Shown: positions 17,440 through 26,518, counted from the stretch's first letter. The stretch: DNA of 64,000 nt from an uncultured delta proteobacterium (GCA_963771175.1 CAVYSY010000001.1:192001-256000), one strand, 5' to 3'. The notes: generated by a model not told the origin, from the letters alone. Translations and numbers: made by a program.

Positions 17440-18276
17440 TCACTGCGCGTGAGGCGATGCGGAGACCGCGGGCGTCGCGTACTCACCGCCCAGCTGCGTC
17501 AGCGCATCCCGGTTCTTGTAGAGGATGAAGACGCCCATCACCACGAGGAAGGCCGAGAAGGCACGCTTGAGGGCCGCCTGCGACACATAGTGGGACGCCC
17601 AGGTGCCGGCGAAAATCCCGGCCACCGCGATGGCCGTGAAGATCCCCAGGTAGCTCCAGGGCACCTCGACGTGGCCGAGGTAGCCGGCGAAGCCCACGAA
17701 GGAGTTGAGGGCAATGACGAGCAGGCTGGTGCCCACCGCCTGCTTCATCGGCAGTCCCACCAGGAGCACCAGCGCCGGGACGATGAGGAAGCCGCCGCCC
17801 ACCCCGACCAGTCCCGTGAGGCCGCCCACACCCAGAGCGGCCGCGGCCATCACCGGGAAGGAGGCCTTGTGCGGCTCGGGCACGTGTGCGTCCTCCTTCC
17901 GCGCCGCCAGTGCGGCCTCCTTGCGGCCATTGCGGAACATGAAGAAGGCGGCCACGAGCATCACCGCGGCGAAGAGCAGGAGCTGCGCGGCGCCCGAGAT
18001 GAAGACGGACAGGCGCGCCCCGGCGTACGTGCCCGCCATCGCCACCGTTCCGAAGATCAGGGCCGCCCGGAACTGGAGATTGCCCTTGCGCCAGTGGCCC
18101 ATGGCACCAAAGAGGCTGGTAACCCCCACCACCGCCAGTCCCATGGCGATGGACTCCTTGGCTCCGAAGCCCAGGACGTACACGAGGATGGGGACGGTGA
18201 GGATGGAGCCGCCGCCGCCGAGAAGACCGAGCGACAGTCCAATGAGAGCCGCGAGGGAGAAGCCGAGGAATGGCAT
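17440..18276 (-). CDS. Sulfite exporter TauE/SafE (TSUP) family
   Basis: GLLGGGGSILTVP and GLVGVGGGFLIVP repeats; AVGTSL. Confidence 0.92.
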   Translation of the reverse strand: MPFLGFSLAALIGLSLGLLGGGGSILTVPILVYVLGFGAKESIAMGLAVVGVTSLFGAMGHWRKGNLQFRAALIFGTVAMAGTYAGARLSVFISGAAQLLLFAAVMLVAAFFMFRNGRKEAALAARKEDAHVPEPHKASFPVMAAAALGVGGLTGLVGVGGGFLIVPALVLLVGLPMKQAVGTSLLVIALNSFVGFAGYLGHVEVPWSYLGIFTAIAVAGIFAGTWASHYVSQAALKRAFSAFLVVMGVFILYKNRDALTQLGGEYATPAVSASPHAQ

Positions 18277-18303
18277 GGTATCCGTTCTTGTCCGAGCGCG
18301 CGC

Positions 18304-18630
18304 TCAGCCCTGGGGACGGGCGGCGGGCGTCTCGTTCACGGCGAGCATTCCGCCCGCCAGGTTGTAGAGGTGTTTGAAGCCACGCAGGGCGAGTGCCTGC
18401 GCGGCCCTCGCGGAGCGTGCGCCCGAGCGGCAGATGAGCAGTAGCGGCACCTCGCGTGGCCAGGAGGCGGAGGCCGCCTCCAGCGTGCCCAGCGGGACGA
18501 GCTCCGACCCGGGCAGGTGGCCCAGGGGACCGGTGAATTCATCCTGCTCGCGCACGTCGATGCGCCGCACTTCGGGGCCGAGCGCATCGAGCTGGGCGGG
18601 GGTGATGTCCTGGTAGGGTTGAGAAGTCAT
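18304..18630 (-). CDS. Single-domain rhodanese (sulfurtransferase)
   Basis: IDVRE, GHLPG, active-site CRSGARS, NLAGGM. Confidence 0.92.
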   Translation of the reverse strand: MTSQPYQDITPAQLDALGPEVRRIDVREQDEFTGPLGHLPGSELVPLGTLEAASASWPREVPLLLICRSGARSARAAQALALRGFKHLYNLAGGMLAVNETPAARPQG

Positions 18631-18660
18631 GGTCGGGCCTCCTGGGTGAGGGTAGGGGGC

Positions 18661-18816
18661 TCAGGCCCCTTGCTGTGAGGGCGCCGTGTGCCCGCAGGCG
18701 CGGTTGGCCGGGACGGCGATGTCGAGCTTCTTGGGCTTGGGCAGGTTGAGGTTCTCCATGATGTGGATGAACTCCTCACGGCTCTTGCCGGCCAGGCGCG
18801 GGTTGTGCCGCTTCTC
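18661..18816 (-). pseudogene. C-terminal remnant of persulfide dioxygenase (ETHE1/PDO-type MBL hydrolase)
   Basis: Manual translation [42 protein letters not shown]...stop matches the ETHE1-type C-terminus; the N-terminus is missing and an AGGAG (18822-18826) abuts the fragment. Confidence 0.8.
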
Positions 18817-18833
18817 GAGGACTCCTGCCCGTG

Positions 18834-18860
18834 AGAGCCCGGGTCGGGGAAAAGGATTCA
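18834..18860 (-). promoter_or_regulatory. Putative ECF-sigma promoter for the PDO-rhodanese-TauE operon
   Basis: TGAATCCTTTTC-N9-GGCTCT, identical in both boxes and spacing to the divergent motif at 19041-19067. Confidence 0.7.
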
Positions 18861-19040
18861 GGACGATCGCCTCCCTCCGGAATCCGCGCGGAAGCAGGCG
18901 CTTCCTCCTCTCTCCGGTATGGGGGCGGCCTGCTCCTGCCTTCCTCGGACTCTGGATTTCAGGGCGGCCCGAAGGAGCCCGGGTGCTGAGCAGGTGATGC
19001 GGCGAGACTGCCCTGCGCGTATGCTCCGTGAAATCCCTCG

Positions 19041-19067
19041 TGAATCCTTTTCTGAGAGTCTGGCTCT
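19041..19067 (+). promoter_or_regulatory. Putative ECF-sigma promoter for the yeeE pair
   Basis: TGAATCCTTTTC-N9-GGCTCT ending 8 nt before the ATG at 19076; no SD sequence, so possibly leaderless. Confidence 0.7.
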
Positions 19068-19075
19068 AGCAAGAC

Positions 19076-19501
19076 ATGAATTCTTCCATCCTCTTTCCTC
19101 TCCTGGGCGGGGCGCTCATCGGGTTGAGCGCCTCGCTCCTCCTCCTGGCCAATGGCCGGGTGGCTGGCATCAGCGGTGTGGTGGGCTCGCTGCTGGCCCC
19201 CGTGCGCGGCGACATCGCCTGGCGCGCGCTCTTCTTGGGGGGACTGCTCACCGGCGGCCTGTTGCTGGTGTGGCTGCGCCCCGTGTCCTTCTCGGCCCCG
19301 GCGCCCTTGAGCGCGGGCGGGGTCGGGCTGCTGGTGGCGTCCGGGTTGCTGGTGGGCTTCGGCTCGCGGCTGGGCAACGGCTGCACCAGCGGGCATGGCG
19401 TCTGCGGCATCAGCCGTGGCTCCGTCCGCTCCATCGCGGCCACCGTCACCTTCATGGCCACCGGTGCCCTCACCGTCTTCCTGGCCCGCCACGTCTTCTA
19501 A
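19076..19501 (+). CDS. YeeE/YedE family sulfur-compound transporter subunit
   Basis: GRVAGISG and [10 protein letters not shown] motifs. Confidence 0.92.
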
Positions 19502-19514
19502 CGGGAGTTCCCCA

Positions 19515-19976
19515 ATGCGTTCCTTCATCAGCGCGTTTCTCAGCGGCCTCATCTTCGCCATCGGCCTGGGCCTCAGCGGCATGACGGATCCGGCCAACGT
19601 CGTCGGCTTCCTCGACATCGCCGGCAACTGGGACTTCCGGCTCGCGTTCGTGATGGGCGGTGCCATCGCCGTGCACGCGGCGCTGCGGCCCCTCATCCTC
19701 AAGCGGGAGCGGCCCCTGTTCTCCGCGAAGTTCCCCTCCTTCCCCGTCAGCAAGTTGGACCCGAAGCTCCTCGTGGGCGCGGCCCTCTTCGGCGCGGGCT
19801 GGGGACTCGGCGGCTATTGCCCCGGCCCCGCTCTCACCTCACTCGCCAGCGGCGCGCCCCAGTTGCTCGTCTTCGTGCCCGCCATGTTCGCCGGCATGTA
19901 CCTCGCCCAGGTGTTCCAGGCGCGGCGCGATGCGAGCGCGCGGACTTCGAGCCTGGGCGCGATGCCCTCGCCGTAG
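19515..19976 (+). CDS. YeeE/YedE family sulfur-compound transporter subunit
   Basis: [14 protein letters not shown] and [11 protein letters not shown] motifs; ATG at 19515 with RBS GGGAG. Confidence 0.9.
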
Positions 19977-20177
19977 TACCGGCCTTCCGGATCGCCGGCC
20001 CCGAGCCGGCGGTCCCGGGATCGCTTCCGTGGGACGTGGACCCAGCTGTCCATATGTCCGCCAGCACCGACATCGGGCGCCCAGTATATTTTCCCAGGGT
20101 GGACCGTCAGGAGGCATTCTGGCGACCGAGCGTTCCCCAACAGGGGCGTGACAGGTGAGTGAGGAGGCGACCTGGTA

Positions 20178-20987
20178 ATGGCGAGTCGAACCGATGAGCA
20201 GTTGGTGGAGGCCGTGCGCTCGGGCGAGAACAAGGCCCTGGATGAGCTCCTCGCCCGCCACGAGAAGCAGGTGTACCGCTTTGGCCTGCGCATGTGTGGC
20301 TCGGAAGAGGACGCCAAGGAGGTACTCCAGGAGACGCTGATCGCGGCGTTCCGCGGCATCCACGCGTTCCGGGGCGACGCGGAGCTGTCCACGTGGCTGT
20401 ACCAGGTGGCCCGCACGCACTGTTTCCGCTTGCGTCGCCGGCGCGTCGGAGCGCCCGAGGAGTTCCATCCACTCGACTCTCCCGCGGCAACCCACGTTGC
20501 CTCGGCGGAGGCGACCCCGGACATGGCCTCCCAGGCGCGGCAGATGGGGGAGGTCTTACAGGCGGCCATCCTCGCGCTGCCGGAGGCCTACCGCGAGGTG
20601 CTCATCCTCCGGGATGTGGAGGGTCTCTCGGCCGAGGAGGCGGCGCAGGTGGTGGGGATCGAGGTGGGGGCGCTCAAGAGCCGACTGCACCGCGCGCGCC
20701 TCCAGTTGCGCGAGCACCTCTCCACCCTCATGGGGGAGGGCGCCCAGGGCGAGGCCCAGTCGTGCCCGGAGCTGGCGCAGGAGCTCTCGGAGTTCGCCGC
20801 GCAGGAGGTGGATCAGTCCACCTGTGTGCGCCTCGAGGACCATCTGTCGCGCTGCCCGCGCTGTGCCCAGGCGTGCGACTCGCTCAAGCGCACGGTGTCC
20901 CTGTGCCGGCGTATCCCCGGGGATGAGGTACCCGCGGCGGTGCGCGCGGCGGTGCGCCAGGCGCTGTCACGAGCGTTGCCTGCCTGA
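20178..20987 (+). CDS. ECF RNA polymerase sigma factor with fused C-terminal zinc-binding anti-sigma (zf-HC2/ZAS) domain
   Basis: Sigma2 (FRGDAELSTWLY), sigma4 (KSRLHRAR), then C-x19-C..HLSRCPRC (Hx3Cx2C). Confidence 0.9.
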   Translation: MASRTDEQLVEAVRSGENKALDELLARHEKQVYRFGLRMCGSEEDAKEVLQETLIAAFRGIHAFRGDAELSTWLYQVARTHCFRLRRRRVGAPEEFHPLDSPAATHVASAEATPDMASQARQMGEVLQAAILALPEAYREVLILRDVEGLSAEEAAQVVGIEVGALKSRLHRARLQLREHLSTLMGEGAQGEAQSCPELAQELSEFAAQEVDQSTCVRLEDHLSRCPRCAQACDSLKRTVSLCRRIPGDEVPAAVRAAVRQALSRALPA

Positions 20988-20997
20988 GTCGTGGGCG

Positions 20998-21041
20998 CCG
21001 CAAAGGCTGCGTGCCTGCTGACCGTGCCGCAAGGCTTGCGT
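20998..21041. promoter_or_regulatory. Tandem enhancer-binding-protein boxes (CCGCA-N5-TGCGT x2)
   Basis: CCGCAAAGGCTGCGT at 20998 and CCGCAAGGCTTGCGT at 21027, 29 bp apart, upstream of a sigma54 site. Confidence 0.65.
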
Positions 21042-21072
21042 TCCTCGGGGCCGTTTCCCGGTGGATTTCAGG

Positions 21073-21088
21073 TGGCGTGCTTCTTGCC
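21073..21088 (+). promoter_or_regulatory. Sigma54 -24/-12 promoter
   Basis: TGGCGTGCTTCTTGCC (GG-N10-GC), 50 bp before the ATG at 21139. Confidence 0.7.
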
Positions 21089-21138
21089 CCGAGAAGGTTC
21101 CATCGACGGCCTCCGTCACGGTGTAGAGGGTTGTCATC

Positions 21139-21966
21139 ATGTCCCACCTTCGCAGGACGTTCCTCGTCGTCCTCTTGCTCCTCCTGGCGGCTCCCGCCGG
21201 GGCGGTGGAGCCCGGCAGTCCCCTCGGTATCCAGCCGCCACCCAAACCCCGCCCGGTGGCCACCCCGCCCGCGCCCCGGTCCGTCGAGCTGTCCCGTTTC
21301 CTCGAATCGCCCGGGCGCGAGGAGGCCTCGCTCCGACTGTGGCTGCGCTTCAATCGGGAGGCGCACGGCCTCGAGCTGGGCGTCCGGGACTTCCTCGATA
21401 CGCTGGGGCGCCTCGCCGCACAGGTGCCCGCGGGGGTCGTCCTCGCCCATGAGCACGTGCAGCTCGACGCCGAGTTGCTCGCCGCGGAACAGGAACTGGT
21501 GACCCTGGAGGAGGCGCGGAGGCTGCTGCTCGAGGAGCTCGGCCGGAGCGACCCGGACAACGCCATCCTCGAAGGGGAGCTGCCGCCCCCCTGGTCCCCG
21601 GATGGGATGCTCGACCGGGATGCCCTGGTGGGGCTCGGCTTCGCGCGCTCGGGCAAGGCCGGGCCGCTCGGACCAACCGTGGAGAGGCTGCTCGCCCGCC
21701 TGGGCTCGCTGGACCGGCGCCTGGCCTCGATGGAGGTGCTCCTGCTGCCCGCTGCGGAGGAGGCCCTGGGGGCGACGCTCCTCGCGCTCTCCTCGGGCGA
21801 GGCGAGCATCCTGGAGGTCGTCAACGGCCTGCGGTTCCTCAAGCAGCAGCAGCGGGCCCGGCTGGAGCTGCGCACGCAGCGGGAGCTCCTCCTATTGGAA
21901 CTCGCCCGTCAGCTCGGCTGCACGGTGGAGCAGCTTCCCTGGTCCTCGGCTACCCCTCAGGGTTGA
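21139..21966 (+). CDS. Exported TolC/outer-membrane efflux-like helical protein (short, divergent)
   Basis: Signal peptide; C-terminal ...[11 protein letters not shown]...LARQLG resembles the OEP repeat end. Confidence 0.5.
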
Positions 21967-22039: not shown

Positions 22040-23206
22040 ATGGCGGAGACCTTGTTCGAAGAATTGAAGAGATACGTGGACTTCGGGCCGGAGGACGAGC
22101 AAGCGCTTCGTTCCCTGCACGAGGTATCCCAACAGCACTTCACCGAGATCGCGCACGTCTTCTACACGCGCATCCTGGAGCACGAGGGCGCGCGCAGCGC
22201 GCTGGCGGGCGAGAGCCAGGTGGGCCATCTCAAGGTCACGCTGCAGGCCTGGATGGAGCAGCTCCTGCGCGGACCCTGGGATGAGGCCTACTACCAGCTC
22301 CGCTGCCGCATCGGCCGCATGCACGTCCGCATCGCGTTGCCCCAGCACTACATGTTCGGCGCGATGAACACCCTGCGGCAGGAGTTCAACCGCATCATCG
22401 ACGAGCACTACGCCGACAATCCCACGGCGCTGCGAGCCACGCGGGTGGCCCTCGGGAAGCTCCTCGATCTCGAGCTGGCCATCATGCTGCACACCTACCG
22501 GGAGGATCTGCTCGCCCAGCAGGCGCGCAGCGAGCGGTTGTCCACCTTCGGGCAGCTCGTGGGCTCCATCGGGCACGAGCTGCGCAACCCGCTGGGGGTC
22601 ATCGAGACGTCGCTCTTCATCCTCAAGGGGCGGCCCCTGGCCACCGACGAGCGCGCCACCAAGCACCTGGATCGCATCGGCGAGCAGGTGGTGCTGGCCA
22701 ACCGCATCGTCACGGACCTGCTGGACATGATCCGGGATCGCCCGCTCAAGCGTGAGCCCCTGCGGCTGGAGGAGGTGTGGAAGGACGCGCTCACCTCGGT
22801 GCAGTCGCCCGAGGGCGTGTCCATCCGCGCCGAGGGCCTGGCCGAGCTCCCCACGCTGCAGGGCGATCCCGGGCAGATGCGCCAGGTCTTCGTCAACCTG
22901 CTGGAGAACGCCGTCCACGCCGTGGGCGAGAAGGGCACGGTGTCCCTGGTGGCATCGACGGGTCCGCGCATGGTGGAGCTGGTGCTGGAGGACTCGGGGC
23001 CCGGGGTCAATGACTCCATCCGGCGCCGGCTCTTCGAGCCGCTGATGTCCACCAAGGCGCGCGGCATCGGCCTGGGCCTGCCTCTCGTCAAGCGCATCCT
23101 CGAGCGCCATGGCGGCTCCATCACCTACGAGCCCCACGAGGGCAGCGGCGCGCGTTTCGTCATGAGACTTCCCGTGTCTCCCCCCTCCACGGAGGCCACG
23201 GTATGA
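22040..23206 (+). CDS. nmpU: Globin-coupled (protoglobin) sensor histidine kinase, AfGcHK/NmpU-like
   Basis: [17 protein letters not shown] (distal Tyr), RIGRMHVRI (proximal His), GHELRNPL H-box, N/G boxes. Confidence 0.88.
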
Positions 23207-23919
23207 GGAACTACCTGCTGCTCGATGACAACGAGGCCTTCGCCGAGAACCTGGCGGAGATCCTCCGCGATTGCGGCGACGAGGCCACGGTGGTGACGGA
23301 CGGGGCGCGGGCGCTGGAGCTGGCGCGCTCGACGCGTTTCGATGTGCTCCTCACCGACATGAAGATGCCCGGCATGAGCGGGGCCGCGGCGGTCCACCAC
23401 ATCCGCAAGGTGGACCCGGGGCTCGCCGCCGTCGTCATCACCGCCTACCCCGGCGAGGACGATCTGGAGACGGCCCGGCGCGAGGGGCTGCTCGCGGTGC
23501 TGCCCAAACCCGTGCCCATTCCCACGCTCGTCTCGCTGTTGTCCGGGGCGCGCCGGGACGGGCTGGTGGCGCTCGTCGACGACGATCTGTTCCTCTGCGA
23601 CAACCTCACCGAGGTGCTGCGCGCCCGCGGCTTCTCGTGTGTCACCGCGAGCTCGGTGCTGGATGCCGACCAGCTCGCCACGGTGCGGCCCTTCGCCGCG
23701 CTGGTGGATCTGAGGTTGCCGGGCGGGCCGGATGGCGAGGCCCTGCGCCGGCTGCGGGCGCGCTTCCCGGAGCTGCCGGTGTTCGTGATGACGGCCTTCC
23801 CGGAGGCGGTATGCCCCATGCCCGAGCACGCGGGCATCTTCTCCAAACCCTTTGACACGGAGAGGTTGCTGGAGGCGCTGGAGCGCGCTCACGCCTCGTG
23901 CCGGGAGCGGGCGGCATGA
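23203..23919 (+). CDS. nmpT: Tandem-receiver response regulator, NmpT-like
   Basis: Two REC domains (LLDD..LTDMKMP..KP; LVDDD..LVDLRLP..KPF), no output domain. Confidence 0.85.
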
Positions 23920-25022
23920 GCGCTCCCCAACCCAAACCTCCCCGCGTGCTCGTCGTCGACGACAACGCGTCCTTCCTCGACAACCTCCACGAGCTGCTGG
24001 GTGATGCCGGCTACTCGGTGGAGGGTGCGACGAGCTGCCGTCAGGCCCGCGAGCGCGCCGGGGGTGGTTTCGACGTGGCCCTGGTGGACCTGCGGCTGCC
24101 GGACGGGGAAGGGACGGCACTCGCCCGCGAGCTGAAGGAGAGGGTGCCCGAGTCCGAGGTGGTGCTGCTCACCGGCTTCGCCACGCTGGAGACGGCCGTG
24201 GAGGCGGTGCGCGCGGGGGCCTGCGCCTACCTGATGAAGCCCTGCGCTCCCAATGAGCTGCTCCTCACGCTGGAGCAGGCCATGCGCCAGGTGCGCCTGC
24301 AGGCCGAGAAGCGCGAGCTGGCGCGCCGGGCCCAGGTGACGGAGAAGCTCGCCGCGGTGGGCACCATGACGGCGGGGCTCTCGCACGAAATCCGCAACCC
24401 GCTCAACGCGGCGGCCCTGCAGCTCTCGGTGCTGGAGCGGCGGGTGCGGCGGCTCTCGGAGGAGCTGCAGCCCAACCTGCTGGATCCCCTGCTGCTGGTG
24501 CGCGATGAGATCCGCCGGTTGGATCACATCCTCGAGGACTTCCTCCAGTTCGCTCGCCCGCGCGAGTTCCGCCCGGAGTCGTTGGAGGTGAGGACGCTGC
24601 TGCGGCGGGTGGTGGATCTGCTGGGAAATCAGGCGGACGCGCGCCGGGTGCGGCTGGAGCTGGACGGGGACGGGGGCGCGCAGGTGCCTGCCATCTGGGG
24701 CGAGGAGGAGCGGCTGCGCCAGGTGCTCATCAACCTGACCCTCAACGCGCTCGAGGCCACGCCGGTTGGCGGGCTCGTGCGCGTCGCCGCGGGCCGTGAG
24801 GGCGACATGGCGTGGATCACCGTGGACGACACGGGCCCGGGCGTTCCCCCGGAGGTTCGCGATCGGCTCTTCGAGCCCTTCTTCACCACCAAGGCCCAGG
24901 GCTCGGGCCTGGGTCTGTCCATCGTGCATGCCATCGTGACGCAGCACGGGGGCACGCTGGAGGTGGGCAGCTCGCCCGAGGGCGGGGCGCGGTTCTTCCT
25001 GCGCCTGCCCCTGGCCCGCTGA
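23916..25022 (+). CDS. nmpS: Hybrid REC-histidine kinase, NmpS-like
   Basis: N-terminal REC, SHEIRNPL H-box, FTTK..GSGLGL. Confidence 0.85.
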   Translation: MSAPQPKPPRVLVVDDNASFLDNLHELLGDAGYSVEGATSCRQARERAGGGFDVALVDLRLPDGEGTALARELKERVPESEVVLLTGFATLETAVEAVRAGACAYLMKPCAPNELLLTLEQAMRQVRLQAEKRELARRAQVTEKLAAVGTMTAGLSHEIRNPLNAAALQLSVLERRVRRLSEELQPNLLDPLLLVRDEIRRLDHILEDFLQFARPREFRPESLEVRTLLRRVVDLLGNQADARRVRLELDGDGGAQVPAIWGEEERLRQVLINLTLNALEATPVGGLVRVAAGREGDMAWITVDDTGPGVPPEVRDRLFEPFFTTKAQGSGLGLSIVHAIVTQHGGTLEVGSSPEGGARFFLRLPLAR

Positions 25023-25023
25023 G

Positions 25024-26451
<1,428 letters not shown>

Positions 26452-26518
26452 GGTCTTCACAACCTAACAAGCAACCGCCCGGGAGGGGGGATTTCCCGAC
26501 CCGCGGTGCGGCCCGACC

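Follow-up and report, generated by a model that had tools for sequence, protein, structure and literature searches.

Two bodies of work frame the locus described here. In SigR-RsrA of Streptomyces coelicolor and SigH-RshA of mycobacteria, an extracytoplasmic function (ECF) sigma factor is paired with a soluble zinc anti-sigma (ZAS) protein that acts as a thiol switch. The regulons of CstR, SqrR/BigR, and FisR contain persulfide dioxygenase (PDO), rhodanese, TauE, YeeE, and SQR-like genes. Here, we investigated a 64,000-nucleotide stretch of DNA from an uncultured delta proteobacterium (GCA_963771175.1 CAVYSY010000001.1:192001-256000), which we call the window. At positions 17440–20987 of the window, two divergent operons of sulfur genes are followed by a gene for an ECF sigma factor that carries a ZAS domain fused to its C-terminus. 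A bipartite promoter-like motif stands ahead of both divergent operons and recurs elsewhere in the genome, before a Sox operon, a second PDO-like gene, a thioredoxin gene, and an OsmC gene; this motif is the new element in our analysis. Taken together, we consider it rather probable that the fused protein is a one-polypeptide ECF sigma/zinc anti-sigma switch, activated by reactive sulfur, that drives motif promoters of sulfur and thiol genes.

By analogy, the closest system mechanistically is SigR-RsrA. Both have an ECF core and a class-I anti-sigma domain of the form C-x25/26-H-x3-C-x2-C, thioredoxin is among the predicted targets, and motif-driven operons include the sigma gene. However, sigma and anti-sigma are one polypeptide here and two genes there. 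The protein also has additional conserved cysteines (C216, C233, and C243 in the tail, C40 and C82 in sigma-2), and its predicted regulon is dominated by genes for sulfur transfer, sulfur oxidation, and export. Like the CstR, SqrR/BigR, and FisR systems, it would control PDO, rhodanese, and transporter genes, but those regulators are CsoR-like or ArsR repressors or a sigma-54 activator, whereas this one is a sigma factor. Pfam found no CsoR-like, ArsR-type helix-turn-helix, or sigma-54 activator domain in it. The chemistry of RsrA is treated in PMC12754779.

The fused architecture is already catalogued, as ECF270s2 or ECF276s3. The group descriptions in Supplementary Text S2 of Casas-Pastor et al. 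2021 (PMC7826278) credit ECF270s2 with a fused soluble ZAS domain and the deltaproteobacterial ECF276s3 with an extension at the C-terminus, and both descriptions fit our protein in architecture and taxon when compared as text. Neither entry assigns a function or notes a genomic context that is conserved. ECF270 is described there without a conserved promoter motif, and the ECF276 promoters are predicted, at low information content, to have "AAC in -35 and TCT in -10," a description that resembles our motif. ECF270 is also listed among uncharacterised groups in a review (PMC8999054). The initial annotation had held that reactive-sulfur sensing by a fused ECF-ZAS protein was undescribed. This was overstated for the architecture. 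A function or regulon we did not find in print: the literature searched, which left out most subscription journals, yielded no description of an ECF or anti-sigma factor with a link to persulfide, sulfane sulfur, PDO, or rhodanese/sulfide sensing.

Two other kinds of fused or tailed ECF sigma factors are relevant. According to PMC8999054 and PMC5826349, the actinobacterial ECF48, ECF52, and ECF53 groups (e.g., SCO4117) also have an anti-sigma-like zinc finger at the C-terminus of the sigma factor, together with transmembrane helices. Those extensions run to as many as 400 residues and include one or two membrane helices, and proteolysis is the presumed mode of activation, whereas the tail here has 78 residues, all of them aligning with the soluble anti-sigma domain. 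CorE and CorE2 of Myxococcus xanthus (ECF238, formerly ECF44), as presented in the PMC7826278 group text, are likewise myxobacterial ECF factors with a regulatory C-terminal extension, rich in cysteines, and no separate anti-sigma. However, the CorE tail is ~20 aa long, is accompanied by a CxC in the linker, and senses metals; the proteins considered here have a 78–85-aa anti-sigma-homologous tail, a cysteine-free linker, and sulfur or thiol targets, which sets them apart from the CorE-like (ECF238) group.

The sigma gene lies at 20178–20987 on the plus strand and encodes 269 aa, with Pfam matches to Sigma70_r2, Sigma70_r4_2, and zf-HC2. The ECF core (20178–20750) comprises sigma-2 (residues 24–89), a linker, and sigma-4 (residues 126–177). 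Pfam returned Sigma70_r2 (E 2e-14), Sigma70_r4_2 (E 4e-16), and Sigma70_ECF (E 1.2e-5) and no other sigma domain, which is the domain content of an ECF (group 4) member of the sigma-70 family. In NCBIfam, TIGR02937 matched at 95.6 bits against a cut-off of 42.9; the other NCBIfam matches were generic sigma names under their cut-offs. Near-identical named proteins come from Archangium, Cystobacter, Corallococcus, Myxococcus, and relatives, and we therefore place the host in the Myxococcaceae. Myxococcus stipitatus and Hyalangium strains are also among the named matches. The host assembly has 9.8 Mb in 58 contigs and is 81.7% complete, and the G+C content of the region is ~70%.

The last 78 residues form the class-I ZAS domain (residues 192–269; 20751–20987, plus strand), with a zf-HC2 match slightly short of the Pfam cut-off and a match to RsrA. 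This tail contains HLSRCPRC and six cysteines: C196, C216, C226, C229, C233, and C243. The signature C196-x25-H222-x3-C226-x2-C229 is present, with the first cysteine 26 residues ahead of the histidine, as in class-I anti-sigmas. We aligned the protein with 83 divergent full-length cluster representatives (84 sequences with the query). C196, H222, C226, and C229 are kept in 76, 81, 80, and 79 of the 84 sequences, respectively, and nine cysteine or histidine positions are each kept in 69 to 83 of them. Among solved chains, the tail matches RsrA best (5frf, E 9e-4 over 68 residues); RsiW and RslA come next. A zf-HC2 match of 30.2 bits was obtained for a paralogue at another locus (L042; here and below, L, G, and C numbers are our own designations for loci, genomes, and contigs), and many orthologues carry a precomputed PF13490 match.

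Two further cysteines lie in sigma-2, C40 (codon 20295–20297) and C82 (codon 20421–20423). They are cysteine in 83 and 81 of the 84 aligned sequences, respectively, and are also retained in most unfused relatives of ~190–210 aa. Such near-invariance is unusual for ECF sigma factors and suggests a second redox or metal site. There is no cysteine between residues 83 and 195, including the linker (90–120), and inspection of the sequence beyond the anti-sigma domain, made without a transmembrane predictor, revealed no hydrophobic segment.

We then modeled the core (residues 1–188) and the tail (residues 192–269) as a complex. The pair scored 0.69 in all three runs, compared with 0.18 for the best of three controls. 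The mark so passed is attained by 116 of 157 solved complexes and, among mismatched pairs, by 2 of 215. The partner had a pLDDT of 78 or more, and the runs agreed in 95% or more of their contacts. The modeled tail contacts both sigma-2 (residues 25–59) and sigma-4 (residues 120–182), with C243 on the sigma-4 side. Passing this mark may be read as likeness to solved sigma/anti-sigma complexes and not as proof that this copy binds.

Natural tail-less orthologues also occur, at L097 (in G194) and in six genomes of one genus (G126, G160, G182, G196, G217, and G223). They are 56–60% identical, and their matches end near residue 185. At L097, a 215-aa sigma gene begins 9 nucleotides after the motif, with no ZAS reading frame behind it. 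These could be naturally deregulated copies.

Next, we examined the promoter-like motif. A bipartite sequence, TGAATCCTTT-N-GGCTCTCAC, resembling an ECF promoter, precedes both divergent operons. Its 12-mer TGAATCCTTTTC occurs exactly twice in the window, at 19041 (plus) and 18860 (minus), in opposite orientation and once per operon, and each copy is followed 14 bases on by GGCTCT. No exact match to the 12-mer was seen in 100 shuffled windows. An earlier count that allowed two mismatches was not significant alone: it gave 2 matches, yet 9 of 100 shuffles had at least 2. The minus-strand copy, P1 (18834–18860), reads TGAATCC-N14-GGCTCT and then CAC, and faces the PDO remnant, rhodanese, and TauE genes; in relatives, the motif lies 21–22 nucleotides upstream of intact PDO genes. 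The plus-strand copy, P2 (19041–19067), also reads TGAATCC-N14-GGCTCT and ends 8 nucleotides before the ATG of YeeE1, so the YeeE1 transcript would be leaderless or nearly so. At eight sampled sites of relatives, YeeE1 likewise starts 7–10 nucleotides past the motif.

A strict form of the pattern has 6 sites in the host genome, compared with 1 control match. The four sites outside the window precede a Sox operon, a gene for a 297-aa metallo-beta-lactamase (MBL)/PDO-like protein, a thioredoxin gene, and a Tll0287-like gene (Pfam). The Sox operon encodes a cytochrome c, a molybdenum oxidoreductase, a dihaem cytochrome, SoxY, SoxZ, DsrE, SoxA, a second cytochrome c, and a protein with a weak metallophosphatase match. 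A variant site with one mismatch precedes the OsmC gene. Across 50 distinct sites, the spacer is 15 nucleotides in 39 and 14 in 11. Conservation extends outside the search pattern, to TT after TGAAYCC-T and to C (40 of 50), A (47 of 50), and C (38 of 50) after GGCTCT. The motif is non-palindromic and always oriented toward the downstream gene, at 7 to 64 nucleotides from the start codon (7–10 for YeeE, 21–22 for PDO, and ~60 for one rhodanese). These features suggest an ECF promoter rather than a dimeric operator.

We then asked how closely the motif follows the fused sigma gene. The full-length fused protein is found in 25 of 41 close and order-level relatives and in 146 of the 201 genomes sampled from the order, a tally that includes G186. 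Within the genus, the strict motif has 13 matches in five sigma-bearing genomes, mostly adjoining the sigma gene, compared with 1 match in five sigma-less genomes; the sequence of that lone match is also present in one sigma-bearing genome. The sigma-less genomes do carry a PDO, of a type 63–67% identical, with a sigma-54-like promoter and without the motif (3 of 3 upstream regions read). This sigma-54 type is their only PDO type, whereas the window's genome has both.

Over the 201 genomes of the order, the strict pattern gave 181 matches, compared with 24 for a reversed control pattern. Among the 150 of these 181 matches that were listed, 129 are in sigma-bearing genomes and 21 elsewhere, and 41, spread over 28 genomes, share a contig with the sigma gene at a distance of no more than 12 kb. 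The chance expectation for such a 24-kb span in genomes of 3–13 Mb is well under one match. We also collected 80 named public loci from Myxococcia, Polyangia, and Vicinamibacterales, picked by similarity of the sigma protein alone. A relaxed motif had 48 matches in 31 of these loci and none in the reversed sequences, and many of the matches fall within ~50 bp of the sigma start or stop. The fused form extends to Polyangia (Sorangium, Polyangiaceae, Kofleriaceae, Sandaracinaceae, and Nannocystaceae) and to the Acidobacteriota (Vicinamibacterales). By these counts, the motif is associated non-randomly with the sigma gene across two phyla.

The genes behind the motif were called in two samples. 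In the order, 60 strict sites were taken on the strength of the pattern and a T following its first block, and not by gene content, and Pfam was run on the first one or two open reading frames. Sulfur genes follow 38 of the 60 sites: PDO (13, often with rhodanese or TauE next), YeeE1 then YeeE2 (9), rhodanese (11, with a SoxB-like metallophosphatase/5'-nucleotidase or the sigma gene next), YgaP-like genes (2), and one each of SoxB-like then YeiH, YeiH, and a CoA-disulfide-reductase-rhodanese fusion. Thiol genes follow 7 sites (thioredoxin 3, Pyr_redox_2 flavoproteins 3, and OsmC 1), and the sigma gene itself follows 1. The remaining 14 are other or unknown genes, e.g., for a topoisomerase, a glycoside hydrolase, a tetratricopeptide repeat (TPR) protein, and a bacterial enhancer-binding protein (bEBP); sites of this kind are probably chance matches, and their number is close to that expected from the control rate.

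In the named loci, 41 first open reading frames were called from the 48 motif sites. These are thioredoxin (8), rhodanese (6), YgaP-like (6), MBL/PDO (4), DUF302 (3), YeeE/TauE (3), OsmC (2), outer-membrane efflux (2), and one each of YeiH, molybdenum oxidoreductase, Tll0287-cytochrome c, and radical SAM proteins, with three that belong to no family. By predicted function, then, the genes behind the motif are biased to sulfur and thiol functions. Thus, the tie that the initial annotation drew between the fused ECF-ZAS protein and sulfur or thiol genes is borne out by a common promoter-like motif in two phyla. As a side observation, small cysteine-rich zinc-ribbon reading frames stand behind the motif at L067, L074, L077, and L140. 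They include FmdB-type proteins that start MPIYEYAC or MPIREYKC and a 59-aa frame that starts with MCRAITCGKCKRP. The one at L074 matches Zn_ribbon_8 in Pfam, the one at L140 has no Pfam match, and those at L067 and L077 were read from the DNA.

The sigma gene is itself placed behind the motif in at least nine loci. In eight of them (L084, L088, and L102, with a rhodanese in between, and L127, L131, L159, L165, and L186), the order is motif, gene, sigma, and at L097, the motif directly precedes sigma. As in SigR-type autoregulation, the sigma gene thus lies behind its own putative promoter and thioredoxin is among the targets, provided that the motif acts as a promoter. In the window, a sigma-70 promoter and terminator scan of 18600–21200 found no terminators, and it gave one minus-strand promoter-like site of no evident meaning. 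Since there is no terminator-like site between YeeE2 and sigma, read-through from the YeeE promoter is the likely equivalent of autoregulation here. A conserved block lies 5' of the sigma gene at 20101–20138 (plus strand), as seen in an alignment of nine upstream regions. It is kept across the genus whatever gene lies upstream, and in relatives it forms an imperfect palindrome, CCAGGA-N5/6-TCCTGG. Read as a weak copy of the motif, the block is a poor match, agreeing at about half of the positions. An operator, a basal promoter, and an RNA structure are candidate roles for it.

From these observations, we propose the following switch. At rest, the RsrA-like C-terminal domain would bind zinc through C196, H222, C226, and C229. 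The cysteines would then be modified by thiol-reactive sulfur species, of which sulfane sulfur or persulfide is the likeliest, and perhaps by other oxidants of thiols; zinc would be lost, the predicted clamp on sigma-2 and sigma-4 would open, and the sigma factor would bind core polymerase. The sigma factor would read promoters of the form TGAAYCCTTT-N(10-12)-GGCTCTCAC, with transcript starts predicted 6–9 nucleotides downstream of GGCTCTCA. Predicted targets in the host are YeeE1-YeeE2 (probably read through into sigma), the operon of the deleted PDO, rhodanese, and TauE, the Sox operon, the type-II-like PDO, thioredoxin, and, through the variant site, OsmC. In relatives, where motif-driven operons end in the sigma gene, the sigma factor would stimulate its own expression. 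Overall, the switch would serve to clear sulfide, persulfide, and sulfite and to repair thiols.

The steps of this proposal differ in strength. The predicted regulon link between the sigma factor and the motif-bearing genes is well supported by comparative genomics. We infer three further steps, namely that this sigma factor reads the motif as its promoter, that the tail inhibits sigma in cis, and that cysteine modification relieves the inhibition. The nature of the signal is the weakest step. Reactive sulfur is favored because the predicted targets, PDO, rhodanese, YgaP, YeeE, TauE, Sox, SQR-like, and persulfide-reductase-like genes, are classic tools for handling sulfide, persulfide, and sulfite. 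In a more specific version, the protein would be a sensor dedicated to sulfane sulfur and would add a fourth class of mechanism to those of CstR, SqrR/BigR, and FisR. Persulfide or polysulfide bridges among the six tail cysteines (C243 being at the predicted sigma-4 interface), perhaps with C40 and C82, would expel zinc and free the sigma factor. The switch and its portable promoter would then be ancestral in Myxococcota and shared with Vicinamibacterales, wiring thioredoxin, rhodanese/YgaP, DUF302, PDO, YeeE/TauE, and Sox operons into one regulon. We put forward this more specific version only tentatively, as one that may well prove too narrow.

If the proposed switch is correct, it would supply a function, a promoter, and a regulon for an ECF group classed as uncharacterised. 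Reactive sulfur sensing is now known from a few repressor families and one sigma-54 activator, and a self-sensing sigma factor would be a different and very compact solution. The prediction is unusually concrete, in that it defines the promoter motif, names the genes, and points to individual cysteines, and it is testable in cultivable myxobacteria, as these carry near-identical proteins. It also gives a sulfur or thiol-stress context to poorly understood families that trail the motif, namely DUF302, YgaP-like, YeiH, and Tll0287-like proteins and the small cysteine-rich reading frames.

Several points weigh against the proposed switch. The zf-HC2 match of the window protein (residues 196–230; E 3.5e-4, 21.1 bits) falls just under Pfam's cut-off of 22.2 bits. 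The AlphaFold monomer has a pLDDT of 81 and a pTM of 0.49, so the domain arrangement is uncertain and its packing was not used. The block at 20101–20138 fits the motif only loosely, so direct autoregulation at this locus rests on read-through. Soil RNA libraries yielded short contigs of relatives and none from this organism. In one family, the strict motif is found in 29 of 68 genomes though the sigma factor is in 65 of 68, and several of the motif matches there repeat one sequence and resemble coding matches. The linkage between motif and sigma could also reflect the sigma gene being a member of the island and not its regulator. Lastly, a general disulfide-stress regulon would just as typically include thioredoxin, OsmC, and MsrB, and a second, split ECF + ZAS pair near YeeE in relatives (L035, L036, and L117) could read the same promoters.

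A first competing explanation is that the protein is a general sensor of thiol oxidation (disulfide stress) like SigR-RsrA, one that answers diamide-like oxidants, electrophiles, or peroxide, with sulfur genes recruited in some lineages only and sulfane sulfur not the specific signal. RsrA is the closest solved relative of the tail, and thioredoxin is the commonest gene after the motif across phyla (8 of 41), with OsmC present too. MsrB and thioredoxin adjoin the sigma gene at L051, and targets of the PDO, YeeE, and Sox kinds are found mainly in the Myxococcaceae. However, sulfur genes outnumber thioredoxin/OsmC-type genes 38 to 7 among the 60 order sites, and likewise in the named loci. Sulfur targets also include Polyangia and Vicinamibacterales loci, such as L155 (Vicinamibacterales), where an MBL-rhodanese fusion stands behind the motif, and no catalase or AhpC-type peroxiredoxin was seen behind the sampled motifs. 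We regard a general thiol sensor as unlikely, if the strongest of the competing explanations.

The motif might alternatively be read by another factor (a split ECF + ZAS pair, another sigma factor, or an activator), with the fused sigma a co-regulated passenger that has different targets. In two relatives, at L035 (12760–13993) and L036, a split paralogous ECF gene (30–33% identical) directly follows YeeE2 and overlaps a separate zf-HC2 anti-sigma gene (~253 aa, E 7e-8), and at L117 a sigma-like gene follows YeeE. In addition, the conserved block just 5' of the fused sigma gene in the genus is not a good motif copy. Yet the host genome has at least six strict sites, and no orthologue of the split pair was found in it (best identity 35–39%, in an assembly 81.7% complete). 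The motif abuts the fused gene, often within 50 bp, in loci of three classes that were chosen by the fused protein alone, and it is lacking in same-genus genomes without the fused sigma (1 match in 5). We give this explanation a small chance. Least probable is that the tail senses metals as CorE/CorE2 do, or inhibits constitutively until proteolysis or a partner protein removes it, with the eight conserved cysteines perhaps binding a second metal or an Fe-S cluster: cysteines beyond the need of a ZAS domain (C216, C233, and C243, with C40 and C82 in sigma-2) are all highly conserved, Myxococcus CorE-type sigma factors use cysteine-rich tails for Cu, Cd, or Zn (group text of PMC7826278), and proteolytic activation is thought to apply to other fused ZAS sigma factors (PMC8999054), but the whole tail aligns with anti-sigma domains and not with a ~20-aa cysteine-rich tail, the CxC of the CorE clade is missing from the cysteine-free linker (90–120), no metal-efflux genes are among the sampled targets save two outer-membrane efflux proteins of 41, and inspection, the only check made, showed no hydrophobic segment after the anti-sigma domain.

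The initial annotation had described a minus-strand operon of a PDO remnant, rhodanese, and TauE, a plus-strand operon of two YeeE genes, and the fused sigma gene, and each of these was recovered where it had been placed. TauE, a TauE/SafE-type sulfite exporter (17440–18276, minus strand; PF01925, E 6.2e-50), is the final gene of its operon. A single-domain rhodanese of 108 aa precedes it (18304–18630, minus strand; PF00581, E 1.5e-11) and is 84–86% identical in two same-genus loci (L035 and L038). The order PDO-rhodanese-TauE recurs in relatives. On the plus strand, YeeE/YedE half-transporter 1 (19076–19501, 141 aa) matches PF04143 Sulf_transp (E 1.9e-6), and half-transporter 2 (19515–19976, 153 aa) matches DUF6691 (PF20398, E 1.3e-41), its start at 19515 having been picked to agree with orthologues.

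Whether the fused gene keeps company with sulfur genes in other genomes, as the initial annotation expected, depends on the distance and level of comparison. Within the genus it does, with both YeeE halves within ~6.5 kb of sigma in 7 of 8 loci. Outside the genus, tblastn found YeeE, TauE, or PDO in none of 12 loci and two weak rhodanese matches, a result that, read literally, goes against the expected synteny. At the level of gene families, 10 or 11 of the same 12 loci have sulfur or thiol genes beside sigma, from the OsmC, DUF302, YeiH, rhodanese, MBL/PDO, thioredoxin, MsrB, YeeE, and cysteine desulfurase families.

Judged by domain content, a separate anti-sigma gene is absent at the window locus, as had been claimed. 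The gene next after sigma (21139–21966, 275 aa) has no Pfam match and was not found by tblastn beside the sigma orthologues of 8 same-genus and 12 further loci. Further 3', 22040–26460 holds a protoglobin-coupled histidine kinase (22040–23206), a double-receiver response regulator, a hybrid kinase, and a minus-strand NtrC-type sigma-54 activator. These genes were absent by tblastn beside the searched sigma orthologues and are probably unrelated to the sigma switch. Soil RNA libraries matched 0.05–0.13 of the stretch, with contigs 90–99% alike and derived from relatives. Their coverage falls on conserved portions of the PDO remnant, rhodanese, and YeeE genes and misses most of the sigma gene.

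The same genome holds a second sulfide module outside the window, on contig C56 (134500–139000; locus L119). It comprises a 441-aa FisR-like sigma-54 activator, GTTTCAC boxes in repeat, a sigma-54-type promoter (TGGCACGGCGCTCGCA), a full-length PDO, and TauE, and this PDO is 64% identical to the motif-type PDO. Because of this FisR-like PDO-TauE module, the fused sigma would not be the sole sulfide regulator of its host.

The PDO remnant in the window is genuine. Using the 233-aa PDO of a relative as a tblastn query, we located codons 183–233 plus the stop of an ETHE1-type PDO at 18661–18816 (minus strand). The coding part, 18664–18816, corresponds to the last 51 of 233 residues and is 86% identical to the intact gene of a same-genus relative. 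DNA alignment with the relative gives two blocks, the promoter and 5' untranslated region and the 3' end, separated by a gap of ~547 bp that was lost from near the start codon through codon 182. By reading of the sequence, no start codon is present at the deletion junction. The promoter region and ribosome-binding site are retained, and the rhodanese and TauE genes therefore remain behind the original promoter. Soil RNA contigs from two studies match as far as 18816, and beyond that their letters fit an intact PDO, which indicates that the deletion is particular to this genome or lineage. At two other same-genus loci, L034 and L041, roughly a dozen initial PDO codons (MIFHQLFD..) are all that separates the motif from YeeE1. 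The island has therefore been reshuffled by deletion more than once, with each module keeping its own copy of the promoter.

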